A DNA stretch of 34,290 nucleotides. It comes from an uncultured Planctomycetaceae bacterium. GTDB taxonomy: Bacteria > Planctomycetota > Planctomycetia > Pirellulales > UBA1268. Location: NCBI GenBank assembly GCA_963923225.1, contig CAWUOA010000002.1:1-34290 (forward strand), written 5' to 3'. Shown one piece after another: positions 2,407-32,761 of this stretch (its first letter is position 1; each line of letters begins with the position of its first letter). The notes under the pieces were generated by a model that made no database searches, was not told where the DNA came from, and worked only from the letters and a program-made list of their open reading frames with translations. Position numbers and translations under genes: made by a program.

Positions 2407-2419
2407 CCCCGAGGCGAGC

Positions 2420-4603: not shown

Positions 4604-4620
4604 CCCCCGCGAGAACCTCC

Positions 4621-6543: not shown

Positions 6544-6604
6544 CGGCTTTCTCCGCGCCGATCTCCCCTCGGAATCGTCCGTGCGGTCTCGGGAAGGCGA
6601 AATC

Positions 6605-11120: not shown

Positions 11121-11213
11121 ATGTCCCCCGTACTCGCCATCGCCGGAGTGATCGCGACGGCGCTGGCGGTGTATCTCGTCGTGGCGATGCTCGCCCCGGA
11201 ACGGTTCTCATGA
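11121..11213 (+). CDS. kdpF: K+-transporting ATPase subunit F
   Basis: 30-codon [33 protein letters not shown]. The YLxxAMLxPERF ending is typical of KdpF. The stop overlaps the kdpA start (ATGA 11210-11213). Confidence 0.75.
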
Positions 11214-17560: not shown

Positions 17561-19002
17561 ACACCCGCGCCCTCGAAGCGATCGGCGTTCCCGCCGCGCA
17601 TGTACGACTGGCCAAGCAACTCGTCGCCGAGGCACGGGCCGCGGGGATCGAGCGGAATCGTGTGCGGCCCGAGCTCGAGGCGGTCCTCGCCGATCCCGCC
17701 GCCCATCTGGCCCACCCGGCGTTCGGCCGCCTGGCGCGTGCGATGGCCGCCCCGGCGGCCGACGGACCGTCGGAGGCGAGCGAACCGCGCGAGCCCGCCC
17801 CCTGGGCGCGGTGGGGCGACGAGATCGAGGAGAACGCGCTCGAGCAGATGCGTCAGGCGATGCGGCTCCCCGTCGCCGTGGCCGGGGCGCTCATGCCCGA
17901 TGCCCACGTCGGCTACGGTCTGCCGATCGGCGGCGTGCTGGCCGCGGAGAACGCGGTGATCCCCTATGCCGTCGGCGTCGACATCGCCTGCCGGATGAAG
18001 CTCTCGGTGTTCGACGCCCCGGCCGAGTGGGTCTCGTCGCGACCGGACAAGCTCGCCGACGCGCTCGAGAACGAGACCCGCTTCGGGATCGCGGCCGCCT
18101 TCGGCGCCCCCGGCGACCCCCGCCGTGCCCGCCACCGCCATCACGACGTCCTCGACGACGACTGGAGCGTCTCGCCGGTGACGCGGGGGAGCCTCGACCG
18201 GGCCCGCGCGCAGCTGGGCACCAGCGGCAGCGGCAATCATTTCGTGGAGTTCGGCACGCTTCACGTCGACGCGGCGCAGGCCGGGGCCCTCGGTCTGGCC
18301 GGCGCCGGCACCTTCCTCGCCCTCCTCTCCCACTCGGGCTCGCGCGGCACCGGCGCCGCCGTCTGCGCCCACTACTCGAAGCTGGCGATGCGCCGGCACG
18401 GCGATCTCCCGCCGGCGCTGTCCCGACTCGCCTGGCTGTCGCTCGACGACGAGGAGGGGCGCGAGTACTGGGCGGCGATGGAGCTCATGGGAAAGTACGC
18501 CGCCGCGAACCACGCCGTCATCCACCGCCACGTGGCCGCGGCGCTGGGACTGGAGTCGATCCTCTCGATCGAGAACCACCACAACTTCGCCTGGGAGGAG
18601 ACGCACGACGTCGGCGGGGTCGCCCGGCGCGTGATCGTCCACCGCAAGGGGGCGACGCCGGCCGGGGCCGGGGCGCTGGGGATCATCCCCGGGTCGATGG
18701 CCACCCCCGGCTTCGTCGTCCGCGGCCGCGGCGTGGCCGCCGCGCTCCATTCCGCGAGCCATGGCGCCGGCCGGCGGATGAGCCGCACGCAGGCCCGGGA
18801 GACCTACCGCTGGGCGCAGGTCCGCGACTATCTCGAGCACCGCGACGTCCGGCTGCTCAGCGCCGGCATCGACGAGGTGCCGCACGCCTACAAGGACATT
18901 CACGGCGTGATGGCGGCGCAAGCGGAGCTCGTGGAGACCCTCGGCCGCTTCGAGCCGCGCGTCGTGAAGATGGCCCCCGAGGGGGAGAAACCCGAGGACT
19001 GA
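17557..19002 (+). CDS. rtcB: RtcB-family RNA 3'-phosphate ligase with an N-terminal extension of about 60 aa
   Basis: ATG 17557 (ATGA overlap with the kdpD stop). Motifs MPDAHVGYG, GVDIACRM, GSGNHF, HNFAW, HRKGAT, PGSM and SASHGAGR (guanylylated His region) are all present. Confidence 0.9.
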   Translation: MNTRALEAIGVPAAHVRLAKQLVAEARAAGIERNRVRPELEAVLADPAAHLAHPAFGRLARAMAAPAADGPSEASEPREPAPWARWGDEIEENALEQMRQAMRLPVAVAGALMPDAHVGYGLPIGGVLAAENAVIPYAVGVDIACRMKLSVFDAPAEWVSSRPDKLADALENETRFGIAAAFGAPGDPRRARHRHHDVLDDDWSVSPVTRGSLDRARAQLGTSGSGNHFVEFGTLHVDAAQAGALGLAGAGTFLALLSHSGSRGTGAAVCAHYSKLAMRRHGDLPPALSRLAWLSLDDEEGREYWAAMELMGKYAAANHAVIHRHVAAALGLESILSIENHHNFAWEETHDVGGVARRVIVHRKGATPAGAGALGIIPGSMATPGFVVRGRGVAAALHSASHGAGRRMSRTQARETYRWAQVRDYLEHRDVRLLSAGIDEVPHAYKDIHGVMAAQAELVETLGRFEPRVVKMAPEGEKPED

Positions 19003-19069
19003 TGCAGCCGTCGCCCGATCGGCCCGCCTACACTGTCTCGGCATCCCGACTCGCCCCGGCTTCACCGTC

Positions 19070-19729
19070 ATGATCCGCCAGCTGATCCTCGTGCCCACCG
19101 ACATGGAGCGGCGGGCCCTCGCCGCGCGGCTCGACGGCCGCCTCCCCGACGACGCCCGCATGGAGCTCTGCGGCTTCGGCCTCGTCGCCGCCGCCGCGCG
19201 GGCCGCGGGCCTCGTCGCGGCGCTGCGTCCCGAGCGGGTGATCCTCGCGGGGATCGCCGGGCGGTACGGGGACTCGATCGCGCTCGGCGGGGCCGCGATC
19301 GTCGAACGCGTCGCCTGCCACGGCATCGGCGTGGGATCGGGCGCGGCCTTCGTGCCCGCGGCGCGGCTCGGCTGGCCGCAGTGGCCGGGCGACCCGGCCG
19401 ATCCCCGCGTCGCCATCGGAGACGACCTCGCCTGCTCCGTTCCCCGCGGCCACCGGCTCCTCCGCGTTCCGCTCGCGCTCTCCGTCGCCGCCGCGAGTGC
19501 CGATCCCGCCGAGGCCGCGCTGCGGCGGGCGACGTTTCCCGAGGCGGTCTGCGAGGAGATGGAGGGCTTCGGCGTGGCCGTCGCCTGCCGGCTCACCGAG
19601 GTGCCGCTGACGATCCTCCGCGGCATCTCCAACGACGCGGGGGACCGCGACCACGCCCGCTGGCGGACGCACGACGCCCTCGCCTCCGCGGCCGATCTCC
19701 TCGTCCGCATCGTGGAGGGGGTCCGATGA
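19070..19729 (+). CDS. mqnB: futalosine hydrolase / nucleosidase (PNP_UDP_1 fold)
   Basis: 219 aa, MIRQLILVPTDMERRAL...VILAGIAGRY...VCEEMEGFGVAVAC...LRGISNDAGDRD. Nucleosidase-fold motifs. Translationally coupled (ATGA 19726-19729) to mqnD. Confidence 0.7.
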   Translation: MIRQLILVPTDMERRALAARLDGRLPDDARMELCGFGLVAAAARAAGLVAALRPERVILAGIAGRYGDSIALGGAAIVERVACHGIGVGSGAAFVPAARLGWPQWPGDPADPRVAIGDDLACSVPRGHRLLRVPLALSVAAASADPAEAALRRATFPEAVCEEMEGFGVAVACRLTEVPLTILRGISNDAGDRDHARWRTHDALASAADLLVRIVEGVR

Positions 19730-20562
19730 CGCGACCGATCCGCCTGGCCATCTCCACCTGCCCCAACGACACCTTCGCCTTCCATGCGATCCTCGCCCGC
19801 GAGGTCGATTGGCGCGGACTCGACTTCCGGGTCGAGCTGCTCGACATCGACGAGCTCAACGGCCGACTCCTCGCAGGCGCCGCCGACGTCTGCAAGGCGA
19901 GCTTTCACGCGGCGCTGACCGTGGCCGAGCGCGTCGTCGTCCTCCCCTCGGGCTCGGCCCTCGGGTTCGGCGTCGGCCCGCTGCTCCTGGCGGCCGAGCC
20001 GGACACGACCCCGCGCGATTCCGGCCAGCTCACGCTCTGCCCCGGGCGGCTGACCACCGCGGCCCTGCTCTTCTCCCTCTTCCATCCCGGCACGACGCGC
20101 GTCGAGCAGACGGTCTTCTCGGCGATCATGCCCAGGCTCCGCGAGCGCTCGGCCGACTTCGGCGTCTGCATCCACGAGGGGCGATTCACCTGGGGCCAGC
20201 AGGGGCTCGTGCTCGTGGAGGATCTCGGGCTCCGCTGGGAGAACGAGACCTCGAGCCCGCTGCCGCTGGGGGGGATCGTCGCCGACGCTCGGCTCCCCGC
20301 CGACACCCTCCATGCCGTAGAGGAGGTGATCCGCGACTCGATCGCCTGGGCGCTCGCCCACCCCGCGCGGACCCTGCCCACGATGCGCCGCCACGCGCAG
20401 GAGTTCGACGACCGGGTGCTCATGCAGCACGTCGAACTGTACGTGAACGACTGGACGATCGATCTCGGCGAGGTCGGCAGACGGGCCCTCGACGAGCTTT
20501 CCGCCCGCGCCGCCGCCGCGGGCCTGGGAGACGGCTCCCGGCTGGCCGTCTTTTCCGGATGA
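19726..20562 (+). CDS. mqnD: 1,4-dihydroxy-6-naphthoate synthase (futalosine pathway)
   Basis: MTRPIRLAISTCPNDTFAFHAILAREVDWRGLDFRVELLDIDELNGRLLAGAADVCKASFHA... matches the characteristic MqnD N-terminus (SxCPNDTF...DIexLN...K.S). Confidence 0.8.
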   Translation: MTRPIRLAISTCPNDTFAFHAILAREVDWRGLDFRVELLDIDELNGRLLAGAADVCKASFHAALTVAERVVVLPSGSALGFGVGPLLLAAEPDTTPRDSGQLTLCPGRLTTAALLFSLFHPGTTRVEQTVFSAIMPRLRERSADFGVCIHEGRFTWGQQGLVLVEDLGLRWENETSSPLPLGGIVADARLPADTLHAVEEVIRDSIAWALAHPARTLPTMRRHAQEFDDRVLMQHVELYVNDWTIDLGEVGRRALDELSARAAAAGLGDGSRLAVFSG

Positions 20563-20650
20563 ACGGCCTCCGGCGGGTGGCCTCCGCGGTCCTCACGGCG
20601 TACAATCCCCCCGAACGGGGATGCCGCCCCAGCCATCACGGAGCCCAGCC

Positions 20651-22036
20651 ATGCCGAGCCGGACCGAGCGACCGGCCGCACGGGGCGACCATCGGGCGGC
20701 GCACTGGCGGTGGCGGACGCGGATGCTCGCGCTGGAGATCAACTCCGCCTGGTGGCTCGACCATTTCCTGGTGCCGGTCTTCCTCCTCGGCATCGTCGGA
20801 GCCTTCTCCCTCCTCTGGGTGCGCACGCGCCGCGTCGATCTGCTCCCCGCCGCGTGGGCGGGGATCGCGCTGGCGGCCCTGATCGCCGCGATCGTCTCCT
20901 GGATGTCGGCCCGGCGGCGTTTCGAGTCGATCGAATCGGCGCGCGTGCTCCTCGAGGATCGGCTGGGCCTCGATGCCCGTCTCTCCGCGGCGGAGGCGGG
21001 CGTGGGGGAGTGGCCGCCGATCGCCGCCGGCACGGACCTCTCCTGGCCGGTGCGGATCCGCGCGGGCCGTCCGCTCCTCCACGCCTCCCTCGCCGCCGCC
21101 ATGCTCGCCGCGGGAGCGCTGGTGCCCGTCACCGACGCGGACGCCGCCCGGTCCCTGCCGGATCGCCCCCCGCCGGACGCCGAAGCGGTGTCGCGGTGGG
21201 TCGAGGAGATGCGCGAGGCGAAGGCCGTCGACGAGGATGCCGCCGCCGATCTTTCCGACCGTGTCGCCGAGCTCCTCGCCAGGCCCCGCGACCGCTGGTA
21301 CGAGCATTCCGGGCTCGAGGCGGCGGCCCATCTCCGAGAGCAGACGGCGGCCGACATCGCGGCGCTCGCCCGCGATCTGGCCGAGGCGGGCAGTGCCGCC
21401 GAGGCCCTCGCCGGCGGAAAACGCGGGGAGGCGCGGGACGCCGCCGCGCGCCGTCTGGCCGGGGCCGCTTCCCGTCTCGCGTCCGGGGGCCTGCGCCCCT
21501 CCGAGGCCACCGCGGCGGCACTCGCGACGAGCGGCCCGGAGGGCATCGCCGAGCTCTCGCCCGAGCGACTCGCGCGGCTGGCCGAGGCGCTCGCCGCCAA
21601 CCGCTCGGCTCTTCGCCAGGCGCTCCAACGGGCCGGAGCCTTCGACCTCGGAGCCTTCACCCCCGGAGAGCCCTGCCCCGAATGCGGGGCCGAGTGCAAA
21701 AGCGGCAAGCCCTGTGCGAAATGTGGAAGCCGAGGAGGGCGGGACGGCGGCCGCGGGGACGTCACCCGCGGGCCCGGTACCGCGCCGATGACGCTCGGCG
21801 CGGAAGGCGAGCTCGGCACCCGGCGGAGCGAGCGGGTGACCGCGCCGCTCGACGTGGAGCGCGGTGCGGCCGGTGAGCTTCTGGAAGTGGTCGACGGCGA
21901 CGAGCCGGTGAACGAGGAATGGGCCGGCCCGGTCGATGGCGGCACCGCGGTGGATGGAGACGGGGGGGGTGCCGTGCGGGTCGACGACCTCGCGCCGCGC
22001 GAACGGGCCACCCTCCGCCGCTACTTCAAAGAGTGA
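20651..22036 (+). CDS. hypothetical membrane protein: 2 TM, Ala/Glu/Arg-rich helical region, Cys-cluster (zinc-ribbon-like)
   Basis: ORF 20621..22036; start ambiguous (ATG 20621, 20651 or 20723). TM segments FLVPVFLLGIVGAFSLLWV and AWAGIALAALIAAIVSWM. A third hydrophobic stretch LLHASLAAAMLAAGALVPV. CPECGAECKSGKPCAKCG at 21674-21724. No family recognised. Confidence 0.6.
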   Translation: MPSRTERPAARGDHRAAHWRWRTRMLALEINSAWWLDHFLVPVFLLGIVGAFSLLWVRTRRVDLLPAAWAGIALAALIAAIVSWMSARRRFESIESARVLLEDRLGLDARLSAAEAGVGEWPPIAAGTDLSWPVRIRAGRPLLHASLAAAMLAAGALVPVTDADAARSLPDRPPPDAEAVSRWVEEMREAKAVDEDAAADLSDRVAELLARPRDRWYEHSGLEAAAHLREQTAADIAALARDLAEAGSAAEALAGGKRGEARDAAARRLAGAASRLASGGLRPSEATAAALATSGPEGIAELSPERLARLAEALAANRSALRQALQRAGAFDLGAFTPGEPCPECGAECKSGKPCAKCGSRGGRDGGRGDVTRGPGTAPMTLGAEGELGTRRSERVTAPLDVERGAAGELLEVVDGDEPVNEEWAGPVDGGTAVDGDGGGAVRVDDLAPRERATLRRYFKE

Positions 22037-22091
22037 CCCGGCCGACGACCGGCCTGGAAAGACTCGCAAAACGCGATCGGGGGATCCCCTC

Positions 22092-23162
22092 ATGACGACC
22101 GGCTCGGGCGAACGGCACCAGACACCGGGCGCGCCCCGGCTCCCCGCGCTCGACGACGACGAGGCCCGGCTCGCCGCCGGCGCGATCGGCCGGCTCACCG
22201 AGACGCTGCGAACGGTGCTCTTCGGGCAGGACCGGATGGTGGAGACCGTCGTCACCGGGATCCTCGCCCGCGGCCACGTGCTTCTCGAGGGGCTCCCGGG
22301 CCTCGGCAAGACGGAGCTCGTGAAGGGTCTGTCACGCGCGCTCGACCTGACGAGCAAGCGGGTGCAGTTCACCCCCGACCTCCTCCCCGGCGACGTGACC
22401 GGGAATCCGGTCCTCGAGGAGACCGATGGCCGGCGCACGTTCCGCTTCCAGCCCGGTCCGGTGTTCGCCAACCTCCTCCTGGCGGACGAGATCAATCGGG
22501 CCTCGCCGAAGACCCAGTCGGCGCTCCTCGAGGCGATGCAGGAGCGGAGCGTGACGGTGATGGGGCAGACGCACGCCCTCCCCCGACCGTTCGTCGTCCT
22601 CGCCACGCAGAACCCGATCGAGCTCGAGGGCACCTATCCGCTCCCCGAGGCGCAGCTCGACCGGTTCCTCTTCAAGATCGACGTTCCCCCCGCCGACGAG
22701 GCGACGCTCGAGCGAATCGTCCTGGAGCGGGAGATCGGCCTGCCCCCCGACGTGCCCCGGGTGATGGATGCCGCGGCGCTCGAGCGCCTCCAGGAACAGG
22801 TCCGGCGCGTGTTCCTCCCGCAGCCGGTGGCGGCCTACGTCGCCCGGCTCGTGGCGGCCACGACCCCCGGCACGCCCACCGGCGCCGGACTCCGCTTCGG
22901 GGCGAGCCCCCGCGCCGCACTGGCGCTGGCGGCGGCCGCCCGCGCCCGGGCGCTGTGCCAGGGGCGCATCAACGCCGGCTACGACGACGTCCGCGCGGCC
23001 GCCCTGCCGGTCCTCAGGCACCGCGTCCTTCTCGACTACGGAGCACGGCTCGAGGGGCTCACCCCCGACCGCATCGTCGCCCGCCTCCTCGAGGCCGTGC
23101 CGGCGCACGACAAGGAGCTCCCCTCGACGCTGGCCGCCGCGAAGGTCCGGGGGCGCGCATGA
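22092..23162 (+). CDS. MoxR-family AAA+ ATPase
   Basis: ATG 22092. Walker A LEGLPGLGKTEL, Walker B LLLADEINRASPKTQSALLEAMQE, then VLATQNPIELEGTYPLPEAQLDRF. This is the canonical MoxR signature. Confidence 0.9.
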   Translation: MTTGSGERHQTPGAPRLPALDDDEARLAAGAIGRLTETLRTVLFGQDRMVETVVTGILARGHVLLEGLPGLGKTELVKGLSRALDLTSKRVQFTPDLLPGDVTGNPVLEETDGRRTFRFQPGPVFANLLLADEINRASPKTQSALLEAMQERSVTVMGQTHALPRPFVVLATQNPIELEGTYPLPEAQLDRFLFKIDVPPADEATLERIVLEREIGLPPDVPRVMDAAALERLQEQVRRVFLPQPVAAYVARLVAATTPGTPTGAGLRFGASPRAALALAAAARARALCQGRINAGYDDVRAAALPVLRHRVLLDYGARLEGLTPDRIVARLLEAVPAHDKELPSTLAAAKVRGRA

Positions 23163-24991
23163 TCGGACCGCCGTGCCGCCGCGCGATCGCCGCGCTTTTC
23201 GTGCTGGCGGCGGCCCGTTGCGCCGCGCCGGCGGCGGCGTGGGCGGCGCCCAAGGCCCCGTCGATGACCGAGTCGGTCGTCGTCTTCACCGACCGCGAGT
23301 CGCGTCTGTCGATCGAGGCCACCGGCTGGCTCGGTCTGGCGGACATCGCGTCCGACGGCGACCGCGGAGCGGTCCCGGTCACGATCCGCATCGTCAACGG
23401 CAGCGACCACGACGTGACGGTGGCGGTCGAGCCGAGAGCCGGTACCGTCACGGCCGTCCTGCCGTCGGTCGTGATCGCGGCGCCTGCCGGCTCGACGACG
23501 ACGGAGACGGTCCACGTCGAGGCGATGCCCAGCGCCGGCGGTCGGTTGGGATCGATCTCCGGCGCGTTCGTCGGCAGCCTCCGCGCGGCCCATTCGGGCG
23601 GCGGATCCCGCCACGTCGTCGAGCTTTCCGTGGGCGAGACGTACGTGTCGGCGGCTCCCGGTGCTCCCTCGTCCGGGATTCCGCGGATGGCGGCGACGGC
23701 GACGGCGCTCGAGCGGCTCGCGTCCGCCATCGGCGACGGCGACGCGCCGCGTCTATCGACCCTGGACACGATCGACCTCGCGGCGGCGCCGGAGGACTGG
23801 CGCGGCTGGTCGGCGCTGCGGGAGGTGGTGATCTCAGACGATGAATGGGAACGGCTGCCGGCCGTGACGCGGCAGGCGATGTTCCAGTGGCTGGCGCTCG
23901 GCGGGGTGCTGCGCGTCGTCGCCGAGGATCTCGATCCCGCCCGGCTGGACCGGATCGGTCTGCCGGAGCCGGGTGCCGACGACGTCCGACGCGTCGGCGC
24001 CGGCGAGGTGATTCCCATACCCCTCGACGACGTCTCTTTGAGACACGTCGTCTCACAGGGGTGGTTCGTTGATGGCGGCGACGGCTGGCGGGATCCGCGG
24101 CCGCTCCATCCCTGGCTGCCGGACGCTCTCGCGGCGGCGGGAGGCTTCTCGGCGCGCACGTTTCCCCTCAACGCGATCCTCGCGTTCCTGGTGCTCTTCG
24201 CGCTCGCGGCAGGCCCGGCGAACGTCATCCTCGCGGCCCGCGGAGGGAGACCGGCACGGGTCTTCTGGACGACGCCCCTGCTGTCGCTCGCCGCCGCCGC
24301 GGTCCTCACCGCCATCATGCTCCTCGGCGACGGAGTGGGCGGGGCGGGCGTGCGGCGCACGCTGTGCCTCATCGACCCGGCCCGCTCGAGCGCGGGTGTG
24401 CTGCAGGAGCAGTTCTCTCGCACCGGCGTGCTCTTCGGCGGATCGTTCCCCGTCCGGGAGCGGAGCCGGATGCGGCCGGAGCCGACCATCGCCGGCGGTC
24501 TCTCTTCCACGAAGGGCGTCGTCGAAGGACGGCGGTTCACCGACGCCCCCGGCCAGAGGCGTGGCGACTGGTTCCGCAGCCGTTCCGACCAGGCCTTCTC
24601 GCTGGCCGCGATCCGCCCCCACCGCGGCCGACTGGATTGGAGCGGCGGGGAATCGCCGGCGATCGAGTCGAGCATCGACGCCGCGATCGACCGGGTGATC
24701 GTGCGCGACGAGCGCGGCAGGCTGTGGCGGGGCGGCCAGACCGAGGCCGGCCGAACGACGGCGCTCGAACCGGCCACGGAGGACGAGCTCAACTCGATGC
24801 TCGCGACGCTCGCCCCGGATCAGACCGGCGCCGTCGCCGTGGCCGTCGCCCGGCTCCGCGACGCCCCCGGCCTCGCCTGGGCGGAGGCGGCGTCCCCCGC
24901 ACGCCTCGCCATCGCCACGCACGGCGCCATCCGCTGGCGCGACGACCGCGCCTGGTTCGTCATCCCGGTGGGACGGAGGGACCAGCCGTGA
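23159..24991 (+). CDS. hypothetical exported/membrane protein (signal peptide plus two central TM helices), no recognisable family
   Basis: ATG 23159 overlaps the MoxR stop (ATGA). Signal-like MIGPPCRRAIAALFVLAAARCAAPAAAWA. TM pair FPLNAILAFLVLFALAAGPANVIL and TTPLLSLAAAAVLTAIMLLG. Normal composition and high GC3. Confidence 0.7.
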   Translation: MIGPPCRRAIAALFVLAAARCAAPAAAWAAPKAPSMTESVVVFTDRESRLSIEATGWLGLADIASDGDRGAVPVTIRIVNGSDHDVTVAVEPRAGTVTAVLPSVVIAAPAGSTTTETVHVEAMPSAGGRLGSISGAFVGSLRAAHSGGGSRHVVELSVGETYVSAAPGAPSSGIPRMAATATALERLASAIGDGDAPRLSTLDTIDLAAAPEDWRGWSALREVVISDDEWERLPAVTRQAMFQWLALGGVLRVVAEDLDPARLDRIGLPEPGADDVRRVGAGEVIPIPLDDVSLRHVVSQGWFVDGGDGWRDPRPLHPWLPDALAAAGGFSARTFPLNAILAFLVLFALAAGPANVILAARGGRPARVFWTTPLLSLAAAAVLTAIMLLGDGVGGAGVRRTLCLIDPARSSAGVLQEQFSRTGVLFGGSFPVRERSRMRPEPTIAGGLSSTKGVVEGRRFTDAPGQRRGDWFRSRSDQAFSLAAIRPHRGRLDWSGGESPAIESSIDAAIDRVIVRDERGRLWRGGQTEAGRTTALEPATEDELNSMLATLAPDQTGAVAVAVARLRDAPGLAWAEAASPARLAIATHGAIRWRDDRAWFVIPVGRRDQP

Positions 24992-25005
24992 GCGGATCCT
25001 GTCCG

Positions 25006-25959
25006 ATGATCGAGGTCAGTGGCCTCCACCGGTGGTTCGGCCCGGTCCACGCCGTGCGCGATCTCTCCTTCAAAGTCCCCCACGGCGCCGTCGTCGGCTT
25101 CATCGGCGCCAACGGCGCCGGCAAGACGACCACGATGCGGATCATCGCCACGCTCGACGAGCCGACCTCCGGTCGGGTCCGAGTCGACGGCCACGACGTC
25201 GTCGAGGAGCCCTCCGCGGTGCGCCGCATCGTCGGCTGGATGCCCGACAGCCTCGGCACGTACGACACGATGACCGTTCTCGAGTACCTCGACTTCTTCG
25301 CGCGTGCCTACGGGCTGGGCGGGGCCCGCCGCCGGGCCCGGGTGGAGGAGGTGATCGACTTCGCCGATCTCGGTCCGCTCGCCGACCGGCAGATGGCGAA
25401 GCTCTCCAAGGGCATGGCGCAGCGGCTCTGCTTCGGGCGGATGCTCGTCCCCGATCCCGGGCTGCTGATCCTCGACGAGCCGGCCGCCGGCCTCGACCCC
25501 AAGGCCCGCCTGGAGTTCAAGAACCTGGTCCGCCTGCTCGCCGGCCGTGGCAAGACGATTCTCGTGTCGAGCCACATCCTCAGCGAGCTCGGCGAGATGT
25601 GCGACGAGCTCGTGTTCATCGACTCGGGGAGTCTCGTCTTCCAGGGCCACGCCGACGAGCTGCGGCACGGCGTGCCGACGGCCGGATCGCCCGGATCGGC
25701 CGACGCCGTCTCCACCGTCGTGGTCTCGGTCGCCGGCGATCCGGCCCCGCTCCATGCATGGGCGGCGGAGCGGCCCGGCTGGCGGCTGCTCGAGAAACGG
25801 CGCGACGGTGCGAAGGTCGAGGTGCCAGGCGGCGACCCGGCCGCGGTCGCGCTGGCACTGCGGCGCCTGGTGGAAGGGGGCATCGAGGTGACGGAGTTCC
25901 GCCGCGAAGGGCGGCTCCTGGAGGAGGCCTTCGTCGACATGGTGGGGCGGAACCGATGA
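25006..25959 (+). CDS. ABC transporter ATP-binding protein (ABC-2/CcmA-like, with a C-terminal extension)
   Basis: MIEVSGLHRWFG... Walker A GANGAGKTT, signature LSKGMAQR, Walker B LLILDEP, H-loop VSSHIL. Alternative start GTG 24988 would overlap the upstream stop (GTGA 24988-24991). Confidence 0.9.
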   Translation: MIEVSGLHRWFGPVHAVRDLSFKVPHGAVVGFIGANGAGKTTTMRIIATLDEPTSGRVRVDGHDVVEEPSAVRRIVGWMPDSLGTYDTMTVLEYLDFFARAYGLGGARRRARVEEVIDFADLGPLADRQMAKLSKGMAQRLCFGRMLVPDPGLLILDEPAAGLDPKARLEFKNLVRLLAGRGKTILVSSHILSELGEMCDELVFIDSGSLVFQGHADELRHGVPTAGSPGSADAVSTVVVSVAGDPAPLHAWAAERPGWRLLEKRRDGAKVEVPGGDPAAVALALRRLVEGGIEVTEFRREGRLLEEAFVDMVGRNR

Positions 25960-27395
25960 GCCACGCGACACCCGCGGCCCCCGCCGCGCCCGCCCGCGAT
26001 GCGGACGACTTCCCCTCCTGGATGAACCCGATGCTCGTCAAGGAGCTGCGCCAGGGGGTGCAGTCGGGGGCCTTCGCCTGGACCTTCATCCTCCTCCACG
26101 CGGGGATGTTCGTCCTGATGACGCTGTGGGTGCTGACCTTCGTGGCCGATCGCGATTCCCCCACCGACGTCCACGGCTTCTACCGCGGCATCTTCTGGGC
26201 GTTGTTCGGCGTCGCGGCCATGCTCGTGGTCCCCGGCCGGGCGGCCGGCTCCATGGCCGCCGAACGACAGGGGACGGCGCTCGACCTGCTGCGACTCACG
26301 CGCCTCTCGTCGACGCAGATCGTACTCGGCAAGTGGCTCGGCACGATGGCCCAGGTGGGGCTGGTGACGGTGTCGGTCCTCCCGTACGTCGTCCTCCAGT
26401 ACTTCTTCGGGGGCCTCGACGTGATCGCCGACCTGATGGCGCTGGCAGGGGTGCTGATGGCGGCGTCGGTGACGACCGCGGGGTCGGTGGCCATGGCGAA
26501 ACAGTCTTCGATCCTGCGTGGGGGACTGTTCCTGATCCTGGGCTACGCCGCCGTGGGCTTCGCGGTGGGAACGGCCGGAGGGTTCAGCCTCACCCTCACC
26601 CCGAGCGGCACGTTGGTCGGAGTCGCGGCGGTCGCGGCGGCGCTGCTCACGGCCGTGCTCCTGGAGTACTCCGCCGCCGCCGTCGCCCCCGCCGCCGAGA
26701 ACCACGCCGGCCGGATCCGTTTGCTGGTGCTCGTCGCCGTGGCGCTGGCGCTGGGGGTGGGCCCCGCGCTCGGCCCCGGGATCGATTCCCTGCTGGCGAC
26801 GGCGGCGGCGACGCTGGTCGTCGTCGTGGCCACCGTCGAGTTCACCACCAACGCCTCGCCGGTCATCGCGCTCCACGCGCCGTTCGCGCGGGCCCGGCTC
26901 CCGGGACACCTCGCCGCGGCCCTGTTCACCCCCGGCTGGGCCACCGCCGTGCCGTTCCTCCTGGTCGCCACGGCGCCCTGGCTCCTGCTCGGCTCCGCCA
27001 CCGGCCGGCTCGGGGAAACCGCCGTCGGGCTGGCCGCGCTCCTCCTCCCCCTTCCGTTGTTGGCGCTCTTCCCGGCAGGGCGCCAGCGATGGGCCGCGAT
27101 CCTCCTGGTGCACGCCGCGTCGATCGCGCTGTACGCGCTGGGTGGTGCCTGGCTGGCCATGAACTCCCTGTCGCGGCGGTTTCCGGTGTTGCTCCCCCTT
27201 CCGGCGTTCATCGCGCGATACGGCGCGGGCATGGGCGCCGATGAAGTCTCCGCGATTCCGGCGCTGTGCACGACGGCGGTCTGCCTCGTGCCCCTGGTTC
27301 CCCTCTGGCTGTACGAGATGCGCGCCCTCTCCGGCAGACTCGCGGCCGCTTCGGGCCGGCGCGACGCGTCCCTCCCTCCGCGGGCCGCGCCATGA
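25956..27395 (+). CDS. polytopic membrane protein, probable ABC-2-type permease partner
   Basis: ATG 25956 overlaps the ATPase stop (ATGA). N-terminal NPMLVKELRQGVQSGAFAW is typical of ABC-2 permeases. About 10-12 hydrophobic segments across 479 aa. The permease assignment rests mainly on context. Confidence 0.7.
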   Translation: MSHATPAAPAAPARDADDFPSWMNPMLVKELRQGVQSGAFAWTFILLHAGMFVLMTLWVLTFVADRDSPTDVHGFYRGIFWALFGVAAMLVVPGRAAGSMAAERQGTALDLLRLTRLSSTQIVLGKWLGTMAQVGLVTVSVLPYVVLQYFFGGLDVIADLMALAGVLMAASVTTAGSVAMAKQSSILRGGLFLILGYAAVGFAVGTAGGFSLTLTPSGTLVGVAAVAAALLTAVLLEYSAAAVAPAAENHAGRIRLLVLVAVALALGVGPALGPGIDSLLATAAATLVVVVATVEFTTNASPVIALHAPFARARLPGHLAAALFTPGWATAVPFLLVATAPWLLLGSATGRLGETAVGLAALLLPLPLLALFPAGRQRWAAILLVHAASIALYALGGAWLAMNSLSRRFPVLLPLPAFIARYGAGMGADEVSAIPALCTTAVCLVPLVPLWLYEMRALSGRLAAASGRRDASLPPRAAP

Positions 27396-28267
27396 ACCAC
27401 GCGGAGATCCACGCCTCGGCCCGCGGCGCGGCCGACGTCCTCGCCCTCCCGCTGCGCCGCGAGCGTTTCGCGGGCTCCGCCGGTCCGTTGTCCGGCCGCG
27501 GGAGCGGGAGCTCCCTCGAGTTCCACGACCAGCGACGCTACGTCCCCGGCGACGACCCGCGCCACATCAACTGGCTCGCCACCGCGCGGGGCGGAGAGTA
27601 CGTCCTCAAGCAATGGCGCGAGGAGGTGTCCCCGTGCATCGACATCCTCCTCGACCACTCCCCCTCCATGTTCCTCTTTCCCGCCAAGGCCCGGCGCGTG
27701 TGGGAACTGGCCTACTTCGCCATCGAGGCCGCCCGCCGATCGGGGGCCCGCCTCCGCATCCTCCGTCTCGGCCGCGAGCGGGGCACGGCGCCGGAAGCCA
27801 TCGCCCCGGAGCGGGCGCTCGCCCACGACTGGCCGGCGGTGCCCGCTCCCCCCCGGGCGCCCGCGCCGCTGGCCGCCGATCTGTCGCGTGCCGATCCCCG
27901 GCCCGGATCGCTGCGGATCCTCGTCTCCGACCTGCTCGACCCGGCCCCTCCCGACGGGGCGACCTCGGCGCTGGCGGCCGGCAACGGCCGGGCCGTGATC
28001 CTCGCCCCGTCGGCCGCGGAGGAACGTGACCCGGACTGGTCGGGCAACGTCGAATTCGAGGATTGCGAGACCGGCGCGCGGCGGTTCTCGCTCGTCGACG
28101 AGACGATCATGGCACGGTACCGGGCCGCATGGCAGCGTCATGTCGGAGCCTGGCGGGAGTCCGCCGCGCGACGCGGGATCGGCATGGCGATGGTCGCCGC
28201 CGAGGGGCCGTTCCTCGACGCCCTGCGCGGCGAGGCGCTGCCGGCCGGCGTCCTGGAGCCGTGGTGA
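27392..28267 (+). CDS. DUF58 domain protein (vWA-like, MoxR-associated)
   Basis: ATG 27392 overlaps the permease stop (ATGA). GSGSSLEFHDQRRYVPGDDPRHINWLATAR is the DUF58 hallmark, followed by the MIDAS-like ILLDHSPSM. Confidence 0.85.
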   Translation: MNHAEIHASARGAADVLALPLRRERFAGSAGPLSGRGSGSSLEFHDQRRYVPGDDPRHINWLATARGGEYVLKQWREEVSPCIDILLDHSPSMFLFPAKARRVWELAYFAIEAARRSGARLRILRLGRERGTAPEAIAPERALAHDWPAVPAPPRAPAPLAADLSRADPRPGSLRILVSDLLDPAPPDGATSALAAGNGRAVILAPSAAEERDPDWSGNVEFEDCETGARRFSLVDETIMARYRAAWQRHVGAWRESAARRGIGMAMVAAEGPFLDALRGEALPAGVLEPW

Positions 28268-28283
28268 CGCCCGCGACGGGAGC

Positions 28284-30167
28284 GTGGATGCCTTGGGAAT
28301 CGTTCTCGCCAATCCGTGGGGCCTCGCCGCGCTCGCCGCGGTGCCGCTCCTGATCGCGATCCACTGCCTGCGGCAGCGCTCGCGGAGCGTGCGCGCGAGC
28401 ACCCTCTTCCTCCTCGAGCACGCCGCCCCCCGCCCCGTCGGCGGCAGACGGCTCGAGCGCTTCCGCGGCAGCCTGCCCTTCTGGCTCCAACTCGCCGCCC
28501 TCCTGGCCGCGACCTGGCTCCTCGTCGAGCCGCGCTGGATCCGCAAGGAGTCCCGCCAGACCGTCGTGGTGCTCCTCGACGGCTCGATCTCGATGGAGGC
28601 GTTCCTCGGGGAGACGAAACGGGCCCTCGCGGCGGCGTTGAGGACGCTCGCCACCTCGGCGGGGCGCACCGACTGGCATCTCGTCGAGACCGGCCCGCGC
28701 CGGGGGTCGCTCCATGCCGGCGACCGGCTCGACGGCCTCCTCGCCGCCCTCGAGCGCTGGCGACCGACGCAGGGCACGCACGACCCCGGCCCGGCGCTGG
28801 CCCTGGCGCTGTCCCTCGCTCCGCCCGAACGCGGCGGAGCGATCCTCGTCACCGATCGTCCGGTGGAGGTGCCGCCGGGAGTGGCGTTGTTCTCCGTGGC
28901 GACGCCGATCGGGAACGTCGGCTTCACCGGAGCCGATTCGACGGCGGAGGAGACCGCGGACGGCTCCGACTCGGCGCCCCGGGCGTCGCCGGTGCGGCGC
29001 TGGCGGGCCCTCGTGAAGAACCACGGCCCCTCGGCCGCCACCCGGAGCCTGTCGCTCTTCCGCGGTGCGATGGGCGGGGTCCCGGGGGAGCGCGTCGGCG
29101 AGCCGCTGGCCCTGAACCTCGCGCCGGGGGAGACGCGCGCCCTCTCGGGCCCCTGGCCCGCGGGCGCCGACCGCCTCCTCCTCGCCCTCGACCCCGACCG
29201 CTTCACGGCCGACGACGTGGCGCCGATCGAGCGGCCCGTTCCGCGGGACGTGCGCGTGGCGCCACGCGAAGGGGGGGAACCGCGCGTCGCGGCGATGCTC
29301 GCCGCCGCGGACGCGGTGACCGTGATCGGCGATCCCGCCGACGCCGATCTCGTGGTGGGTCGTCTCGGCGACGACGTCGCTCGTCACGCCGTTCTCCTCC
29401 CGGCCCTCGCCACGGAGGGGAGCGCGGAGGCACCGCTCGACTCCGCTCCGATCGCCGCCACCGACCATCCGCTCGTCCGTGATCTCGCCTGGGGCGGCCT
29501 CCTCTCGGCGTCACCCGTCGAGATTCCGACCGGGGCCGGCGACGAGGTGCTCGTGTGGAAGGGGCGGATGCCGCTGGTCGTCCTCCGCACCACGATCCTC
29601 CCGGACGACGCCCCGCGGGAGTCGCTCCTGCTGGCCTTCGATCTCGAAACCTCGAACGCAGCGCGCCTCCCGGCGCTGGTCGTCCTCCTCGACCGGTTCG
29701 CCGAACGCGTCCGGCGGACCATCGACCGGCCGTGGGCCGACACCTTCCAGACCGAGCAGTCGATCCCCCTGTCCGAGCGCGCGGCCACGATGGCGGTGTC
29801 GCCGGCCGCGCCGCCGCCCGGCGCCGACGACGCCGCGGAGGAGCCTTTCCAGGGGCGCGCGCCACGCGGAGCGTCGTTCTTCGAGGTCCGGGACGGCGGG
29901 GGGGCCCCGCTCCTCTCGGGCGCCGCGTCACTCCTCGATCCGCGTGAAGGGGATTTCGCCGCCGCCGGAAGCGTCGACGGGATCGGCGCGATGCGTCGCG
30001 AGGGGGCGCTGCGCCGCTCGGTCGCCGATCCGTTCCTGCCGGGTTGGCTGGCGCTGCTCGCGGGGGCGCTGGCGACGGCGTGGTGGCTCCAGGCCCGGCC
30101 CGCCGCGACGCTCCCGCATCCCTCCCCGATCGGCACCCCGTCCCCGCTCCCGGAGCCGAGGCCATGA
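28284..30167 (+). CDS. BatA-like protein: N-terminal double-TM domain, vWA-like domain, C-terminal TM
   Basis: Start GTG 28284 or TTG 28293 (GGGAG at 28278-28282 favours TTG). LANPWGLAALAAVPLLIAIHCLRQRSR ... LPFWLQLAALLAATWLLV matches the aerotolerance-regulator (BatA) N-terminal double-TM pattern. MIDAS-like VVLLDGSISM. C-terminal helix PGWLALLAGALATAWWL. Confidence 0.75.
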   Translation: MDALGIVLANPWGLAALAAVPLLIAIHCLRQRSRSVRASTLFLLEHAAPRPVGGRRLERFRGSLPFWLQLAALLAATWLLVEPRWIRKESRQTVVVLLDGSISMEAFLGETKRALAAALRTLATSAGRTDWHLVETGPRRGSLHAGDRLDGLLAALERWRPTQGTHDPGPALALALSLAPPERGGAILVTDRPVEVPPGVALFSVATPIGNVGFTGADSTAEETADGSDSAPRASPVRRWRALVKNHGPSAATRSLSLFRGAMGGVPGERVGEPLALNLAPGETRALSGPWPAGADRLLLALDPDRFTADDVAPIERPVPRDVRVAPREGGEPRVAAMLAAADAVTVIGDPADADLVVGRLGDDVARHAVLLPALATEGSAEAPLDSAPIAATDHPLVRDLAWGGLLSASPVEIPTGAGDEVLVWKGRMPLVVLRTTILPDDAPRESLLLAFDLETSNAARLPALVVLLDRFAERVRRTIDRPWADTFQTEQSIPLSERAATMAVSPAAPPPGADDAAEEPFQGRAPRGASFFEVRDGGGAPLLSGAASLLDPREGDFAAAGSVDGIGAMRREGALRRSVADPFLPGWLALLAGALATAWWLQARPAATLPHPSPIGTPSPLPEPRP

Positions 30168-32761
30168 TGCGGCTGGTCTCCCCCCAGTGGCTCGTTCTCC
30201 TGCCGATCCTCGCCGCGGTGGCGTGGCGCTGGCCGGCGCTCGGCCTGTGGCGGCCACCGCGTGCCGCGTGCATGGCACTCGTCGTCCTCCTCCTGGCCGG
30301 CCCGGAGATGCGGCGGCAGGGGGACGGGCTCGATCTCTGGCTCCTCGTCGACCGCTCCGAGAGCGCCGAGGAGACGGTCGGCACGCGGGCGCGCGAATGG
30401 GAGGCGATCCTCGCGGAGTCGCGCGGGCCCGCGGACCGGCTTCTGGTCGTCGACTTCGCCGACGAGTCCGTGACGCGCGGCGCCATCCTCCGCGCCGGAG
30501 CGGGAGGGGGAGAGTTCTCCGGCAAACGCGGGGCGACGCGTCTGGCCGGCGCCGCCCGCCACGCGCTGGCGCAGGCCCGCTCCGACCGGGCCACGAGGAT
30601 CCTGGCGCTCACCGACGGGTTCTCCACCGAGCCTCTCGACGGCCTCGCCGAGACGCTGCGCGCACGGGACGTGCCCCTCGATCTCCGCCTCGCCCCCCTG
30701 CCCCGCGAGGACGACTTCTCGGTGGCGTCGCTCGTGGCCCCCAGACGCGTCGGCCCGCGCGAGGGAGTCCTCCTCGAGACGCTCGTCCGCGGCTCCGTCG
30801 ATGCCCGCGTGCCGGTGGAGGTGTGGCGCGACGGGCAGCAGGTGGGGAAGTCAATCGCCGACGTCGTCGACGGGGAGGCCCGGCCGCGCTTTTCCGATCT
30901 CCCCGCCACGCCGGGAGCCCACCGCTACGAAGTGCGCGTCGCCGCGGAGGGGGACGCCCGCCCCGGAAACGACGCCGCGGGCCGGTGGGTCGAAGTGGCC
31001 GGCGGGCCGCGGATTCTCCTGGCGAGCGCCTGGAATCCGAGCCCGCTGGCCGCGGCGCTGCGTGCCCAGGGCCACGACGTCGTCGAGACGAGCGACCCCG
31101 GATCGCTCCACGTCGGCATGCTCGCCGGCGCCCGCGCCGTGATCCTCGACGGGATCCCCGCGCACCGCTTCCCCGTCGACTTCATCCGTGCGCTCGAGTT
31201 CTTCGTGACCGCGCAGGGGGGCGGGCTGGCGATGATCGGTGGGAGGCACTCCTTCGCCGGCGGCGGCTGGGCGGGCTCGGTCGTCGACCCGCTCCTCCCG
31301 GTATCGCTCGAGAGCAAGGCGGAGCGCCGCAAGCTCGCCGTCGCCATGGCGATCGTCCTCGACCGCTCCGGTAGCATGTCGATGACCGCCCCCGGCTCGA
31401 ACGTGACGAAGATGGCGCTCGCGGACGAGGGGGCGGCCCGGTCGATCGAACTCCTCGGCGACCAGGATCTCGTCGTCGTGATCCCGGTCGACTCCGAAGC
31501 GCATCCCCTCTCGAGCGCCCCCGTCGCCGTGGGACCGAACCGGGAGAGCCTCGCCCGGGCCGCACGGGGCGTGACCAGCGGTGGGGGGGGCATCTACTGC
31601 TACACCGGCCTGGCGTCGGCCTGGAGCATGCTCCGCGACCATCCCGTCGGGCAGCGCCACGTGATCCTCTTCGCCGACGCCGCCGACGCCGAGGAGCCCG
31701 GGGCCTACGTCGCACTCCTGGAGGAGATGCAGCAGGGGGGCTGCACGGTGAGCGTCATCGGGCTGGGCACGGAGCGCGACCGCGACGCGGCCCTCCTCAG
31801 CGACATCGCCGCGCGGGGCGGCGGACGGATCTTCTTCAGCGACCGCCCGGACGACCTGCCGGCGCTGTTCCAGATGGAGACCGCGACGGTCGCGCGTTCG
31901 GCGTTCGTGGAGGAGCCGGTGGCCGTGGCCGCCACACCCGGCTGGCTGCAACTGGCCGCCGCGCCGCTCGACTGGCCCGGCACGGTCGACGCCCACAACG
32001 TCGTCGAGCTCCGTCCCGGTGCCTCCACGGCGCTGGTCACGTCCGGCGAGGAGGAACCGGTGCCGCTGGTGGCGTTCTGGCAGCGCGGCGCCGGCCGCAC
32101 CGCGTCGGTCGCCCTTCCCCTCGGCGGCCCGGGCTCGGAGGGTGTCCGCGGGTGGGAGGGCTACGCTCCGTTGGCCGGCACGCTCGCCCGCTGGCTCGCC
32201 GGCTCGGGGATGCCGGAGGGGATCGGCCTGCGGACCACGGTCGAGGGATCGGCGCTCCGCCTCGACCTCCTCTACGACGACGCCTGGAGCCAGCGTGTCG
32301 CCGCCGAGCCGCCCCGCTTGGCGATCGCCCGGGGGCGTGCCGGCGCCGCGGCGGAGGTGCCGTGGGAGAAACAGGCCCCGGGACACTTCTCCGCCTCGGT
32401 CGACATCGCCGACGCGGAGTACGTCCGCGCCGCGGTCACCACCGGTGACGTGGCCCTCTCCGCCGGCCCCCTCGACGCCGGCACGAACCCGGAATGGACG
32501 CTCGATCCGCGCCGCCGCGACGACTTGCGTGCCGTGAGCCGGGCCACCGGCGGCGCGGAGCGCGACGACCTGGCCGCGGTCTGGCGGGCCCCGCGGCCCC
32601 GCGCCTGGCGCGGCCTCCACCGCGAGCTCCTGACGCTGCTCCTGGCGGCGATCCTGGGCGAGGCGTTGGCCACCCAGGCCGGCTGGCAGCCGCGCGTCGC
32701 GACGCGTGGCTTCAGCGGCGCGGCCCCAGCCGCCTCCCGACCTCGAGCGCCACGAGCCTGA
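30164..32761 (+). CDS. large membrane protein: vWA-like, GATase1-like (non-catalytic), vWA
   Basis: ATG 30164 overlaps the upstream stop (ATGA). N-terminal TMs. LWLLVDRSESA (MIDAS-like). PRILLAS...VILDGIPAHRF...FVTAQGGGLAMIGGRHSF resembles the GATase1-like DUF1355-type fold but has no nucleophile Cys in the GGGLAMIGG elbow. A second vWA domain with IVLDRSGSMS...GGGIYCYTGL...ILFADAADA. C-terminal TM LLTLLLAAILGEAL. Confidence 0.8.
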   Translation: MMRLVSPQWLVLLPILAAVAWRWPALGLWRPPRAACMALVVLLLAGPEMRRQGDGLDLWLLVDRSESAEETVGTRAREWEAILAESRGPADRLLVVDFADESVTRGAILRAGAGGGEFSGKRGATRLAGAARHALAQARSDRATRILALTDGFSTEPLDGLAETLRARDVPLDLRLAPLPREDDFSVASLVAPRRVGPREGVLLETLVRGSVDARVPVEVWRDGQQVGKSIADVVDGEARPRFSDLPATPGAHRYEVRVAAEGDARPGNDAAGRWVEVAGGPRILLASAWNPSPLAAALRAQGHDVVETSDPGSLHVGMLAGARAVILDGIPAHRFPVDFIRALEFFVTAQGGGLAMIGGRHSFAGGGWAGSVVDPLLPVSLESKAERRKLAVAMAIVLDRSGSMSMTAPGSNVTKMALADEGAARSIELLGDQDLVVVIPVDSEAHPLSSAPVAVGPNRESLARAARGVTSGGGGIYCYTGLASAWSMLRDHPVGQRHVILFADAADAEEPGAYVALLEEMQQGGCTVSVIGLGTERDRDAALLSDIAARGGGRIFFSDRPDDLPALFQMETATVARSAFVEEPVAVAATPGWLQLAAAPLDWPGTVDAHNVVELRPGASTALVTSGEEEPVPLVAFWQRGAGRTASVALPLGGPGSEGVRGWEGYAPLAGTLARWLAGSGMPEGIGLRTTVEGSALRLDLLYDDAWSQRVAAEPPRLAIARGRAGAAAEVPWEKQAPGHFSASVDIADAEYVRAAVTTGDVALSAGPLDAGTNPEWTLDPRRRDDLRAVSRATGGAERDDLAAVWRAPRPRAWRGLHRELLTLLLAAILGEALATQAGWQPRVATRGFSGAAPAASRPRAPRA

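Follow-up and report, generated by a model that had tools for sequence, protein, structure and literature searches.

A MoxR/DUF58/BatA-type gene cluster with an embedded ABC-2-like transporter is conserved in Planctomycetota and Verrucomicrobiota

We describe a gene cluster from an uncultured Planctomycetaceae bacterium that joins the core of the bacterial Bat loci to an ATP-binding cassette (ABC) transporter. The stretch of DNA analyzed, which we refer to as the window, comprises 34,290 nucleotides of contig CAWUOA010000002.1 (assembly GCA_963923225.1), and the cluster occupies positions 20621 to 32761 on the + strand. Its eight genes encode, in order, an unnamed membrane protein (orf1), a MoxR-family AAA+ ATPase, a 610-aa membrane protein (orf3), an ABC transporter ATPase, a permease, a DUF58 protein, and two large BatA-type membrane proteins with von Willebrand factor A (vWA) domains, which we call protein 7 and protein 8 (VWA2). 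The locus belongs with the MoxR family and has the MoxR/DUF58/BatA_N/vWA core of Bat loci, into which a putative ABC-2 exporter is built. The genes recur in the same order at loci from two phyla, and we consider it fairly probable that the eight constitute one conserved operon in Planctomycetota and Verrucomicrobiota, encoding a single inner-membrane, periplasm-facing system.

An earlier note on this DNA had suggested that a Bat-like cluster here encloses an ABC-2 exporter pair and two orphan membrane proteins, and that the whole may be one envelope machine. The idea of a shared cluster is borne out by conservation of gene order from two directions; the likeness to Bat loci is a loose one, with BatC, BatD and BatE not detected.

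Conservation of gene order

The forward comparison was seeded on orf3. An orf3 alignment was scanned against one genome per species, which yielded 160 candidate stretches, and the best 79 loci were analyzed by tblastn with the window proteins and with the proteins of a 37%-identical locus (L001); loci were counted only where they had enough flanking sequence. By record title these best 79 loci are from Planctomycetota or Verrucomicrobiota, and they span Pirellulales, Planctomycetaceae, Chthoniobacterales, Verrucomicrobiales, Prosthecobacter, Luteolibacter and Akkermansiaceae. MoxR lies immediately upstream of orf3 in 68 of 69 loci and the ABC ATPase immediately downstream in 68 of 70, with the permease after the ATPase in 54 of 61. 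The DUF58 gene (38/50), the BatA-like gene (31/45) and VWA2 (28/44) are present at most of these loci, and an orf1-like gene stands upstream in 31 of 61. Throughout, the gene order is that of the window, at 25-50% protein identity across the two phyla. The linkage of MoxR, orf3 and the ABC ATPase, which is tighter than that of MoxR and DUF58, is the tightest in the cluster, which suggests that MoxR works most immediately with orf3 and the ABC-2 transporter.

Because this comparison was conditioned on orf3, we ran a reverse test on VWA2, whose family is well conserved, by a metagenome scan followed by tblastn. Sixteen of the 23 VWA2 loci with at least 9 kb of upstream sequence carry orf3, ABC ATPase, permease, DUF58 and BatA genes, one is partial, with the ABC ATPase and permease, and the remaining six have VWA2 alone. 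Every DUF58 gene with at least 2.8 kb of upstream sequence (23/23) is directly preceded by the permease and the ABC ATPase, and therefore the ABC module is integral to this orthologous group and not an occasional insertion. A plain MoxR-DUF58-BatA-VWA2 version of the group was not seen among the VWA2-seeded metagenome loci. The earlier note had named conserved adjacency as the test of whether the MoxR, DUF58 and vWA genes form a group with the ABC pair and the two unnamed genes, and the adjacency held in both seeding directions. An interleaved order with overlapping stops and starts, conserved when approached from either side and in two phyla at 25-50% identity, is strong evidence for a functional unit.

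Individual loci depart from the common arrangement in several ways. MoxR and orf3 occur with no DUF58-BatA-VWA2 within 10 kb at L003/L054 (Brevifollis), L004, L039, L041, L049, L050, L053, L059, L062, L064, L073 and L079. At L004, trpC (the IGPS gene) is inserted between orf3 and the ABC gene, and in Brevifollis an orf1-like gene is located downstream on the opposite strand. Solitary VWA2 orthologues of 44-53% identity, with no other member within up to 10 kb, were recorded at L101, L103, L113, L135, L139, L142, L143 and L145; VWA2 can be unlinked in some uncultured lineages. We also note that several metagenome-assembled genome (MAG) records with planctomycete-type clusters (L006, L007, L012, L019, L022, L028) are titled 'Chitinophaga sp.' or 'Candidatus Kuenenia'. 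These 'binchicken' MAG labels look unreliable, because the nearest relatives are labelled Pirellulales or Planctomycetaceae.

Structure of the locus

All eight open reading frames (ORFs) translate without internal stops, and an independent gene call on the source contig, a 38,210-bp metagenome scaffold from ENA, yields the same eight consecutive + strand genes that the earlier note had listed. The two sets differ solely in start codons: in the independent call orf1 begins 30 nt later, the BatA-like gene begins 9 nt later, and the ABC ATPase begins at the GTG that overlaps the orf3 stop, giving a protein of 323 aa. This is the GTGA at 24988-24991 that had earlier been put forward as a possible overlap. 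ATGA overlaps are present at 23159-23162, where the MoxR stop overlaps the orf3 start, and at 25956-25959, 27392-27395 and 30164-30167, and the remaining gaps noted before, of 16 nt (28268-28283) and 55 nt (22037-22091), were likewise verified. The same junctions, with overlapping stops and starts or near-abutting genes, are found at the 37%-identical locus L001.

Simple scans of the cluster detected neither an intrinsic-terminator signal (3 terminator-like sites vs 2.0 expected) nor a sigma-70 promoter signal above shuffled expectation. Rfam and tRNA scans of the window were empty. The G+C content is ~72-77% across the cluster region. We place the limits of the cluster at 20621 and 32761, because the genes that flank it are not conserved with it.

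MoxR, DUF58 and the vWA proteins

The cytoplasmic MoxR protein (22092-23162, +) matches the Pfam domains AAA_3 (PF07726, 2.6e-62, 208.9 bits vs a cut-off of 27) and AAA_lid_2 (PF17863, 5.2e-16), and a scan found zero hydrophobic segments. It is of the MoxR-proper/AAA_3 type, in which AAA_3 is followed by AAA_lid_2 in a chain of ~320-360 aa with no transmembrane (TM) segment. The DUF58 protein (27392-28267, +; PF01882, 1.4e-14) also has zero hydrophobic segments; it is vWA-like and is predicted to be the cytoplasmic partner of MoxR.

Protein 7 (28284-30167, +) was recognized as a BatA-type membrane protein by the BatA N-terminal domain (PF07584, 1.2e-6, 29.2 bits vs a cut-off of 25.9), with additional weak Pfam matches to VWA_2 and VWA_CoxE. 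It consists of the N-terminal double-TM BatA domain, a vWA-like domain with a metal ion-dependent adhesion site (MIDAS), and a C-terminal TM anchor, and a K/R-rich loop joins TM1 and TM2. The large domain of protein 7 and the vWA domains of protein 8 are predicted to be periplasmic. For protein 7 this orientation is suggested by analogy with BB0173, a BatA-type protein whose vWA domain was shown experimentally to be periplasmic (PMC5700661), and the K/R-rich loop agrees with it.

VWA2 (30164-32761, +), a membrane protein of 865 aa, contains a canonical vWA domain at residues 395-555 (VWA_3 1.6e-11, VWA_2 4.7e-9, VWA 7.2e-7). The hydrophobicity scan identified segments at 1-19 and 822-840; a second, BatA-like hydrophobic segment is probably present at the N terminus. 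From the N terminus, the protein is organized as a hydrophobic segment, a degenerate vWA-like region, a GATase1-like region, the vWA domain, a conserved C-terminal region and a C-terminal TM segment. The family has a mean column identity of 57%, and 12 of 18 members give a weak match to GATase1_like.

Four MIDAS-like DxSxS motifs had been reported in three of these proteins, and all are present: LLDHSPSM in DUF58, LLDGSISM in protein 7, and LVDRSESA and VLDRSGSM in the degenerate and canonical vWA regions of VWA2, respectively. Across homologues (45 of DUF58, 36 of the BatA-like protein and 24 of VWA2) the D and S positions are invariant or S/T, and both VWA2 motifs are invariant across 23-24 homologues. 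A fifth DxSxS, at residue 226 of protein 7, was rejected as a MIDAS; it sits in a lineage-specific insertion and was attributed to chance.

The ABC ATPase and permease

The ABC transporter ATPase (25006-25959, +, or from the alternative GTG start at 24988) matches ABC_tran in Pfam (1e-28), and its top NCBIfam matches are drrA, GldA, NodI and RbbA. Scores were 214.7 bits for drrA (TIGR01188, 1.7e-63), which is below the equivalog cut-off, and 194 bits for GldA (TIGR03522, 4e-57; cut-off 402.6). The protein belongs to the DrrA/NodI/GldA group of ABC-2 exporters. We take the translations of both ATPases, MoxR and ABC, to contain canonical Walker and signature motifs.

The permease (25956-27395, +) has 12 hydrophobic segments and a conserved N-terminal motif, DFxDWLSPMLVKELRQG. 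It is distantly ABC-2- and GldF-like, with matches to ABC2_membrane_3 (9.4e-4, 18.8 bits vs 31.6) in Pfam and to GldF (TIGR03518, 8.5e-6, 25.9 bits vs 288.5) in NCBIfam. Of 24 family members only a few match such families, two of them ABC2_membrane_3 and one each ABC2_membrane_2 and ABC2_membrane_5, the best being 5.4e-6 (ABC2_membrane_2). A search of PDB sequences gave no relative.

In some Pirellulales an extra permease paralogue of ~1000 aa, with 23 TM segments, is encoded between the ABC ATPase and the 490-aa permease (L001:12760-15774, L017-L023, L028, L033, L042). These Pirellulales-type loci have one or two additional upstream genes, among them one for a single-TM protein of ~555 aa. 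Several Prosthecobacter loci have two permease genes. To judge from these sequences, the permease component appears to have been duplicated or fused in one lineage, that of the Pirellulales-type loci.

The orf3 family

The orf3 gene (23159-24991, +) encodes a member of a large family that has no name. The relatives numbered 97 in a word-indexed search, and an exhaustive profile search returned 4,765 clusters at 50% identity with E<=1e-3, of which 786 had E<=1e-30. All source names in the search outputs read 'hypothetical' or 'uncharacterized', and the window protein has no match among Pfam, NCBIfam and PADLOC models. A profile from our alignment (A1), searched against the word-indexed database, recovered the same set as the single sequence, with none beyond the Planctomycetes-Verrucomicrobia-Chlamydiae (PVC) group.

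A confident AlphaFold2 (AF2) model built from a 24-sequence alignment (pLDDT 79.8, pTM 0.81) starts with a signal peptide, a beta-sandwich (~38-165) and a flavodoxin-like alpha/beta domain (~177-300). A TM hairpin (337-391) links these to a C-terminal domain rich in beta structure (395-606). A second model, of the isolated alpha/beta domain, reached a pLDDT of 90. The protein had been described before as exported; the model and the hydrophobicity profile, with a signal peptide plus an internal TM hairpin, instead indicate a membrane-anchored protein. Based on these two features, both large parts of orf3 are predicted to be periplasmic, with the short hairpin loop on the cytoplasmic side. This loop carries RxRxFWTTP, the most conserved motif of the family.

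The only Pfam family to recur among orf3 relatives is DUF4350 (PF14258), always below threshold: matches were found in 3 of 24 members (best 0.0077) and in 13 of 80 (best 8.5e-5), and the match in relative P0095 (1.5e-4, 22.5 bits vs 30.4) falls on the alpha/beta domain. Window orf3 itself has no DUF4350 match in Pfam. HHpred comparisons have shown that DUF4350 shares homology with GldG, which serves the GldA/GldF ABC-2 transporter as accessory subunit, and in archaea DUF4350 genes adjoin MoxR and vWA genes (Makarova et al. 2015, PMC5898192). ABC_transp_aux was matched by only 1 of 80 orf3 relatives, at an E value of 0.12.

Other candidate relationships were rejected. The full-length model, compared with the PDB by Foldseek, gave a best E of 6e-3 and low TM-scores on mu-homology and aminopeptidase beta domains, which we do not regard as meaningful, and a profile search of PDB sequences found no relative. 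Orf3 would be a fusion of GldG and DUF4340 if its last beta domain resembled DUF4340, but this idea was not confirmed, as a DUF4340 match was listed for none of the 104 members scanned.

The orf1 family

The product of orf1 (20621-22036, +) begins with 2-3 hydrophobic segments, continues through a coiled-coil-like middle and a Cys-rich block, and carries a conserved motif in its C-terminal part. It matches no model in Pfam, NCBIfam or PADLOC, and Pfam scans of 26 family members gave scattered noise, with no family in more than four. Homologues from both phyla share the N-terminal membrane segments, a WYEH.SLEAA...EQT block and the C-terminal motif GGxAVW..L.P.E...LRR(Y/F)FK. A homologue with the C-terminal motif lies just upstream of MoxR, and the ORF that contains it was recovered in 36 loci from both phyla.

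Orf1 and orf3 are therefore not the orphans that the earlier note had taken them for, as both are conserved families, albeit unnamed; nor did profile searches against Pfam, NCBIfam and PADLOC assign either to an unrelated pathway. The earlier description of orf1 as a 2-TM, zinc-ribbon-like protein holds for the presence of the Cys-rich block and fails for its conservation. The block, with its CxxC...CxxC pattern (window 21640-21700, residues ~340-362; columns ~375-410 of alignment A7), is a variable insertion: some of the planctomycete homologues have it, with 2-4 CxxC pairs, whereas most of those from Verrucomicrobiota lack it. It may be a module for metal binding or redox chemistry that is specific to the lineage.

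Neighboring genes

Ordinary chromosomal genes flank the cluster, and they are not conserved beside it at other loci. Upstream are genes for a DsrE-like protein, hybrid histidine kinases, an adenylate cyclase, a FadL-type outer-membrane protein and a Na/Ca exchanger, followed by kdpABC-kdpD, rtcB and two futalosine-pathway genes; downstream, on the opposite strand, is a short-chain dehydrogenase gene. Of the two tandem signaling proteins at 2348-6488 (+), one is a hybrid histidine kinase that contains two receiver domains and the other fuses HisKA, receiver and adenylate/guanylate cyclase domains. The FadL/TodX-type channel at 6581-7915 implies a diderm host. A complete kdpA-kdpB-kdpC-kdpD potassium-uptake operon spans 11210-17560 (+), as supported by KdpA (1.4e-199) and by E1-E2 ATPase, KdpC and KdpD in the precomputed Pfam annotation of the contig, and rtcB follows at ~17557-19002. 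The two futalosine-pathway (menaquinone) genes at 19070-20562 (+), PNP_UDP_1 (MqnB-like) and VitK2_biosynth (MqnA-like), directly precede orf1. Their position there is probably a coincidence, since the adjacency is not seen at other loci.

Very long overlapping ORFs are present in several frames, including antisense, at 15040-20430, such as 16174-20430 (-) of 1418 aa and 15040-19002 (+) of 1320 aa. We regard these as artefacts and not genes, because stop codons are few at ~75% G+C.

Discussion

A proposed envelope system

In the system that we propose, the DrrA/GldA-like ATPase and the 12-TM permease would form an ABC-2-type transporter, either exporting something or driving a periplasmic process. 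Orf3 would be the accessory subunit of this transporter, in a role like that of GldG for GldA/GldF, with its beta-sandwich, flavodoxin-like and beta-rich domains anchored in the periplasm by the TM hairpin, and with the RxRxFWTTP loop as the likely contact point for a cytoplasmic partner. MoxR, as a hexameric AAA+ chaperone, and the soluble, MIDAS-bearing DUF58 protein, as its vWA adaptor, may carry out the ATP-driven assembly, activation or reset of the membrane complex. The two BatA-type proteins would display MIDAS/vWA and GATase1-like domains in the periplasm, where their ligand may be a partner in the envelope or the substrate that is exported or remodelled, and orf1 may be a further membrane-anchored scaffold. 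DUF58 and the two BatA-type proteins are a separable second module. Beyond the domain identities, the conserved MIDAS motifs and the conserved gene order, which are observed, we infer that the products may associate physically in one envelope machine, in which MoxR would remodel the ABC complex and the substrate would be exported or belong to the envelope.

Several observations weigh against this proposal. Twelve of the 50 orf3 loci with at least 7 kb of downstream sequence keep MoxR and orf3 without the DUF58-BatA-VWA2 genes within 10 kb; all twelve are from Verrucomicrobiota by record title where available, and most keep the ABC ATPase and several the permease. Similarly, in the six metagenome loci with VWA2 alone (of 23), no other member was found within 10 kb even by phmmer, and we therefore regard the two halves of the cluster as separable. 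The permease resembles ABC-2 proteins only below curated thresholds, and the link between orf3 and DUF4350/GldG is sub-threshold as well. Foldseek comparison of the orf3 alpha/beta domain with the PDB returned generic flavodoxin/Rossmann-like folds only (best E 0.04; a ThuA-like entry at rank 15, E 0.14), and hhalign found no relation, at a probability of 0.3%, that would point to a shared GATase1-like origin for this domain and VWA2. Finally, a periplasmic location of the vWA domains in proteins 7 and 8, if correct, would put them beyond the direct reach of a cytoplasmic MoxR.

Alternative explanations

The same genes might instead encode a periplasmic device for metallo-cofactors or metal handling, in which the cluster matures or supplies a metalloprotein of the periplasm or membrane whose gene lies elsewhere. 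Insertion of metals or cofactors is the classical task of MoxR/vWA pairs, as in NorQ/NorD, CoxD/CoxE and BchI/BchD, and some ABC-2 complexes, such as NosDFY, serve periplasmic cofactor assembly and not bulk transport. The four invariant MIDAS metal-binding motifs would suit such a device, as would an ABC-2-like permease with large periplasmic partners, and MoxR does give weak NCBIfam matches to the chelatase families BchD/ChlD and cobaltochelatase. However, the chelatase matches are far under their cut-offs (49.5 vs 499.55 bits), MIDAS motifs are generic to vWA domains, and no gene for a client metalloenzyme is conserved beside the cluster, the flanks of which vary among loci. On balance we judge a metal-handling role to be improbable.

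A second alternative is membrane-proximal protein quality control, in which MoxR would unfold membrane or exported proteins that DUF58/vWA recruits for removal, with the ABC-2 transporter either expelling the products or being a regulated client. Zhang and Aravind proposed a membrane-proximal degradation model for MoxR-vWA-YebA(TGL) operons, and their account mentions the lentisphaerae-verrucomicrobia-planctomycetes clade (PMC3495828). Those transglutaminase (YebA-like) operons and the present cluster both combine a MoxR and vWA pair with polytopic membrane proteins, which here adjoin MoxR and DUF58. In contrast to those operons, a peptidase or transglutaminase domain was not detected in any of the eight proteins or their families, and an ABC transporter is found in its place; we give quality control only a slight chance of being correct.

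The weakest alternative, already disfavored and in our estimation very unlikely, is that an ordinary ABC-2 exporter with its accessory protein merely happens to lie inside a Bat-like MoxR cluster with no functional link: the separability of the halves in some Verrucomicrobiota and in the solitary VWA2 loci speaks for it, but MoxR stays with orf3 and the ABC ATPase and not with DUF58, the interleaved order has been kept across two phyla at 25-50% protein identity, every informative DUF58 gene stands behind the permease and ABC ATPase, and the junctions overlap.

Relation to known systems

Bat loci, which comprise MoxR, DUF58, BatA/BatB and BatC/D/E, have been studied in Bacteroides, Leptospira, Borrelia and Riemerella without a mechanism emerging. 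The cluster described here agrees with them in encoding together an AAA_3-type MoxR, a MIDAS-bearing DUF58 protein, and membrane proteins with BatA N-terminal and vWA/MIDAS domains, the vWA domains being probably periplasmic, as in BB0173 (PMC5700661). It differs in that MoxR and DUF58 are not contiguous, as orf3, the ABC ATPase and the 12-TM permease stand between them here and at every informative locus (23/23), and in that no window protein has a Pfam match to a TPR (BatC), BatD, BatE-like or SH3 family. In addition, the orf1 family is found in front of the cluster, and the BatA-like proteins are much larger, with GATase1-like regions and C-terminal anchors.

A second point of comparison is GldA/GldF/GldG of Bacteroidota gliding motility. 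Against the GldA model the ATPase reaches 194 bits, and the permease has its weak GldF match; in addition, the Gld operons, like the generic 'ABC-type uncharacterized transport system' operons with an ABC_transp_aux protein, encode a large membrane-anchored periplasmic accessory protein, which orf3 resembles in having an alpha/beta domain that is weakly DUF4350/ABC_transp_aux-like (GldG superfamily). In contrast, the scores are far under the equivalog cut-offs, there is no GldG match in the cluster, orf3 has a signal peptide, an internal TM hairpin and an extra beta-rich domain, and the permease has 12 TM segments in one chain. To our knowledge, Gld operons are not linked to MoxR, DUF58 or vWA genes.

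A third point of comparison is the arCOG01314/DUF4350-MoxR-vWA neighborhood of archaea and some bacteria, which Makarova, Galperin and Koonin (2015, PMC5898192) predicted to encode a new complex for secretion or membrane remodelling. It too combines MoxR, a DUF58-type vWA protein and a membrane-anchored protein with an extracytoplasmic, flavodoxin-like, GldG-related domain and Ig-like domains, and it too has a predicted envelope role. The section of that paper on this neighborhood and its Table 2 name no ABC transporter, so that the connection to ABC transport there is solely through GldG homology, whereas the ATPase/permease pair is embedded in the cluster described here. Further differences are that the orf3 match to DUF4350 is sub-threshold and that BatA-type proteins take the place of S-layer-like Ig proteins.

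In the full-text literature available to us, which does not cover most subscription journals, neither an ABC-2 transporter embedded in a MoxR/DUF58/BatA cluster nor the orf1 and orf3 families were found to have been described. Two possible reports of a MoxR/vWA operon from the PVC group were set aside, as neither Kamneva et al. 2012 nor Pinos et al. 2016 mentions MoxR, DUF58, BatA, von Willebrand or ABC. Assignment to an anti-phage defence system was likewise rejected: PADLOC gave generic weak P-loop cross-matches for the two ATPases only, and none for orf1, orf3, the permease, DUF58, the BatA-like protein or VWA2.

Implications

MoxR-DUF58-vWA (Bat-type) loci are among the commonest conserved gene clusters without a known function in bacteria and archaea. 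In the variant described here the MoxR gene is tied both to an ABC-2 exporter and to orf3, a large membrane-protein family without a name, which comprises at least 4,765 clusters at 50% identity and has no Pfam or NCBIfam model. It yields a concrete hypothesis with named partners, in which an envelope complex for export or assembly is what the MoxR/vWA module serves. Orf1 and orf3 add two sizeable 'dark' families that occur throughout Planctomycetota and Verrucomicrobiota, both of which have unusual cell envelopes.

The cluster also brings together two comparative-genomic observations that had been made separately, the occurrence of GldG with ABC-2 transporters and that of DUF4350 with MoxR and vWA genes. 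A more speculative reading, which we offer tentatively and to which we would give perhaps a minor share of our belief, is that envelope systems of a widespread class have their complete form in the PVC cluster, and that DUF4350-MoxR-DUF58 and GldG-ABC-2 would be the halves of one mechanism. MoxR and DUF58/vWA would then assemble or gate GldG-like ABC-2 complexes for export or mechanotransduction, and orf3, fusion-like in joining a GldG/DUF4350-like part to a second periplasmic beta domain via the TM hairpin, would couple the AAA+ motor to the periplasmic vWA receptors. If this were true, it would provide the first concrete function for Bat-type loci, the control of an envelope exporter.

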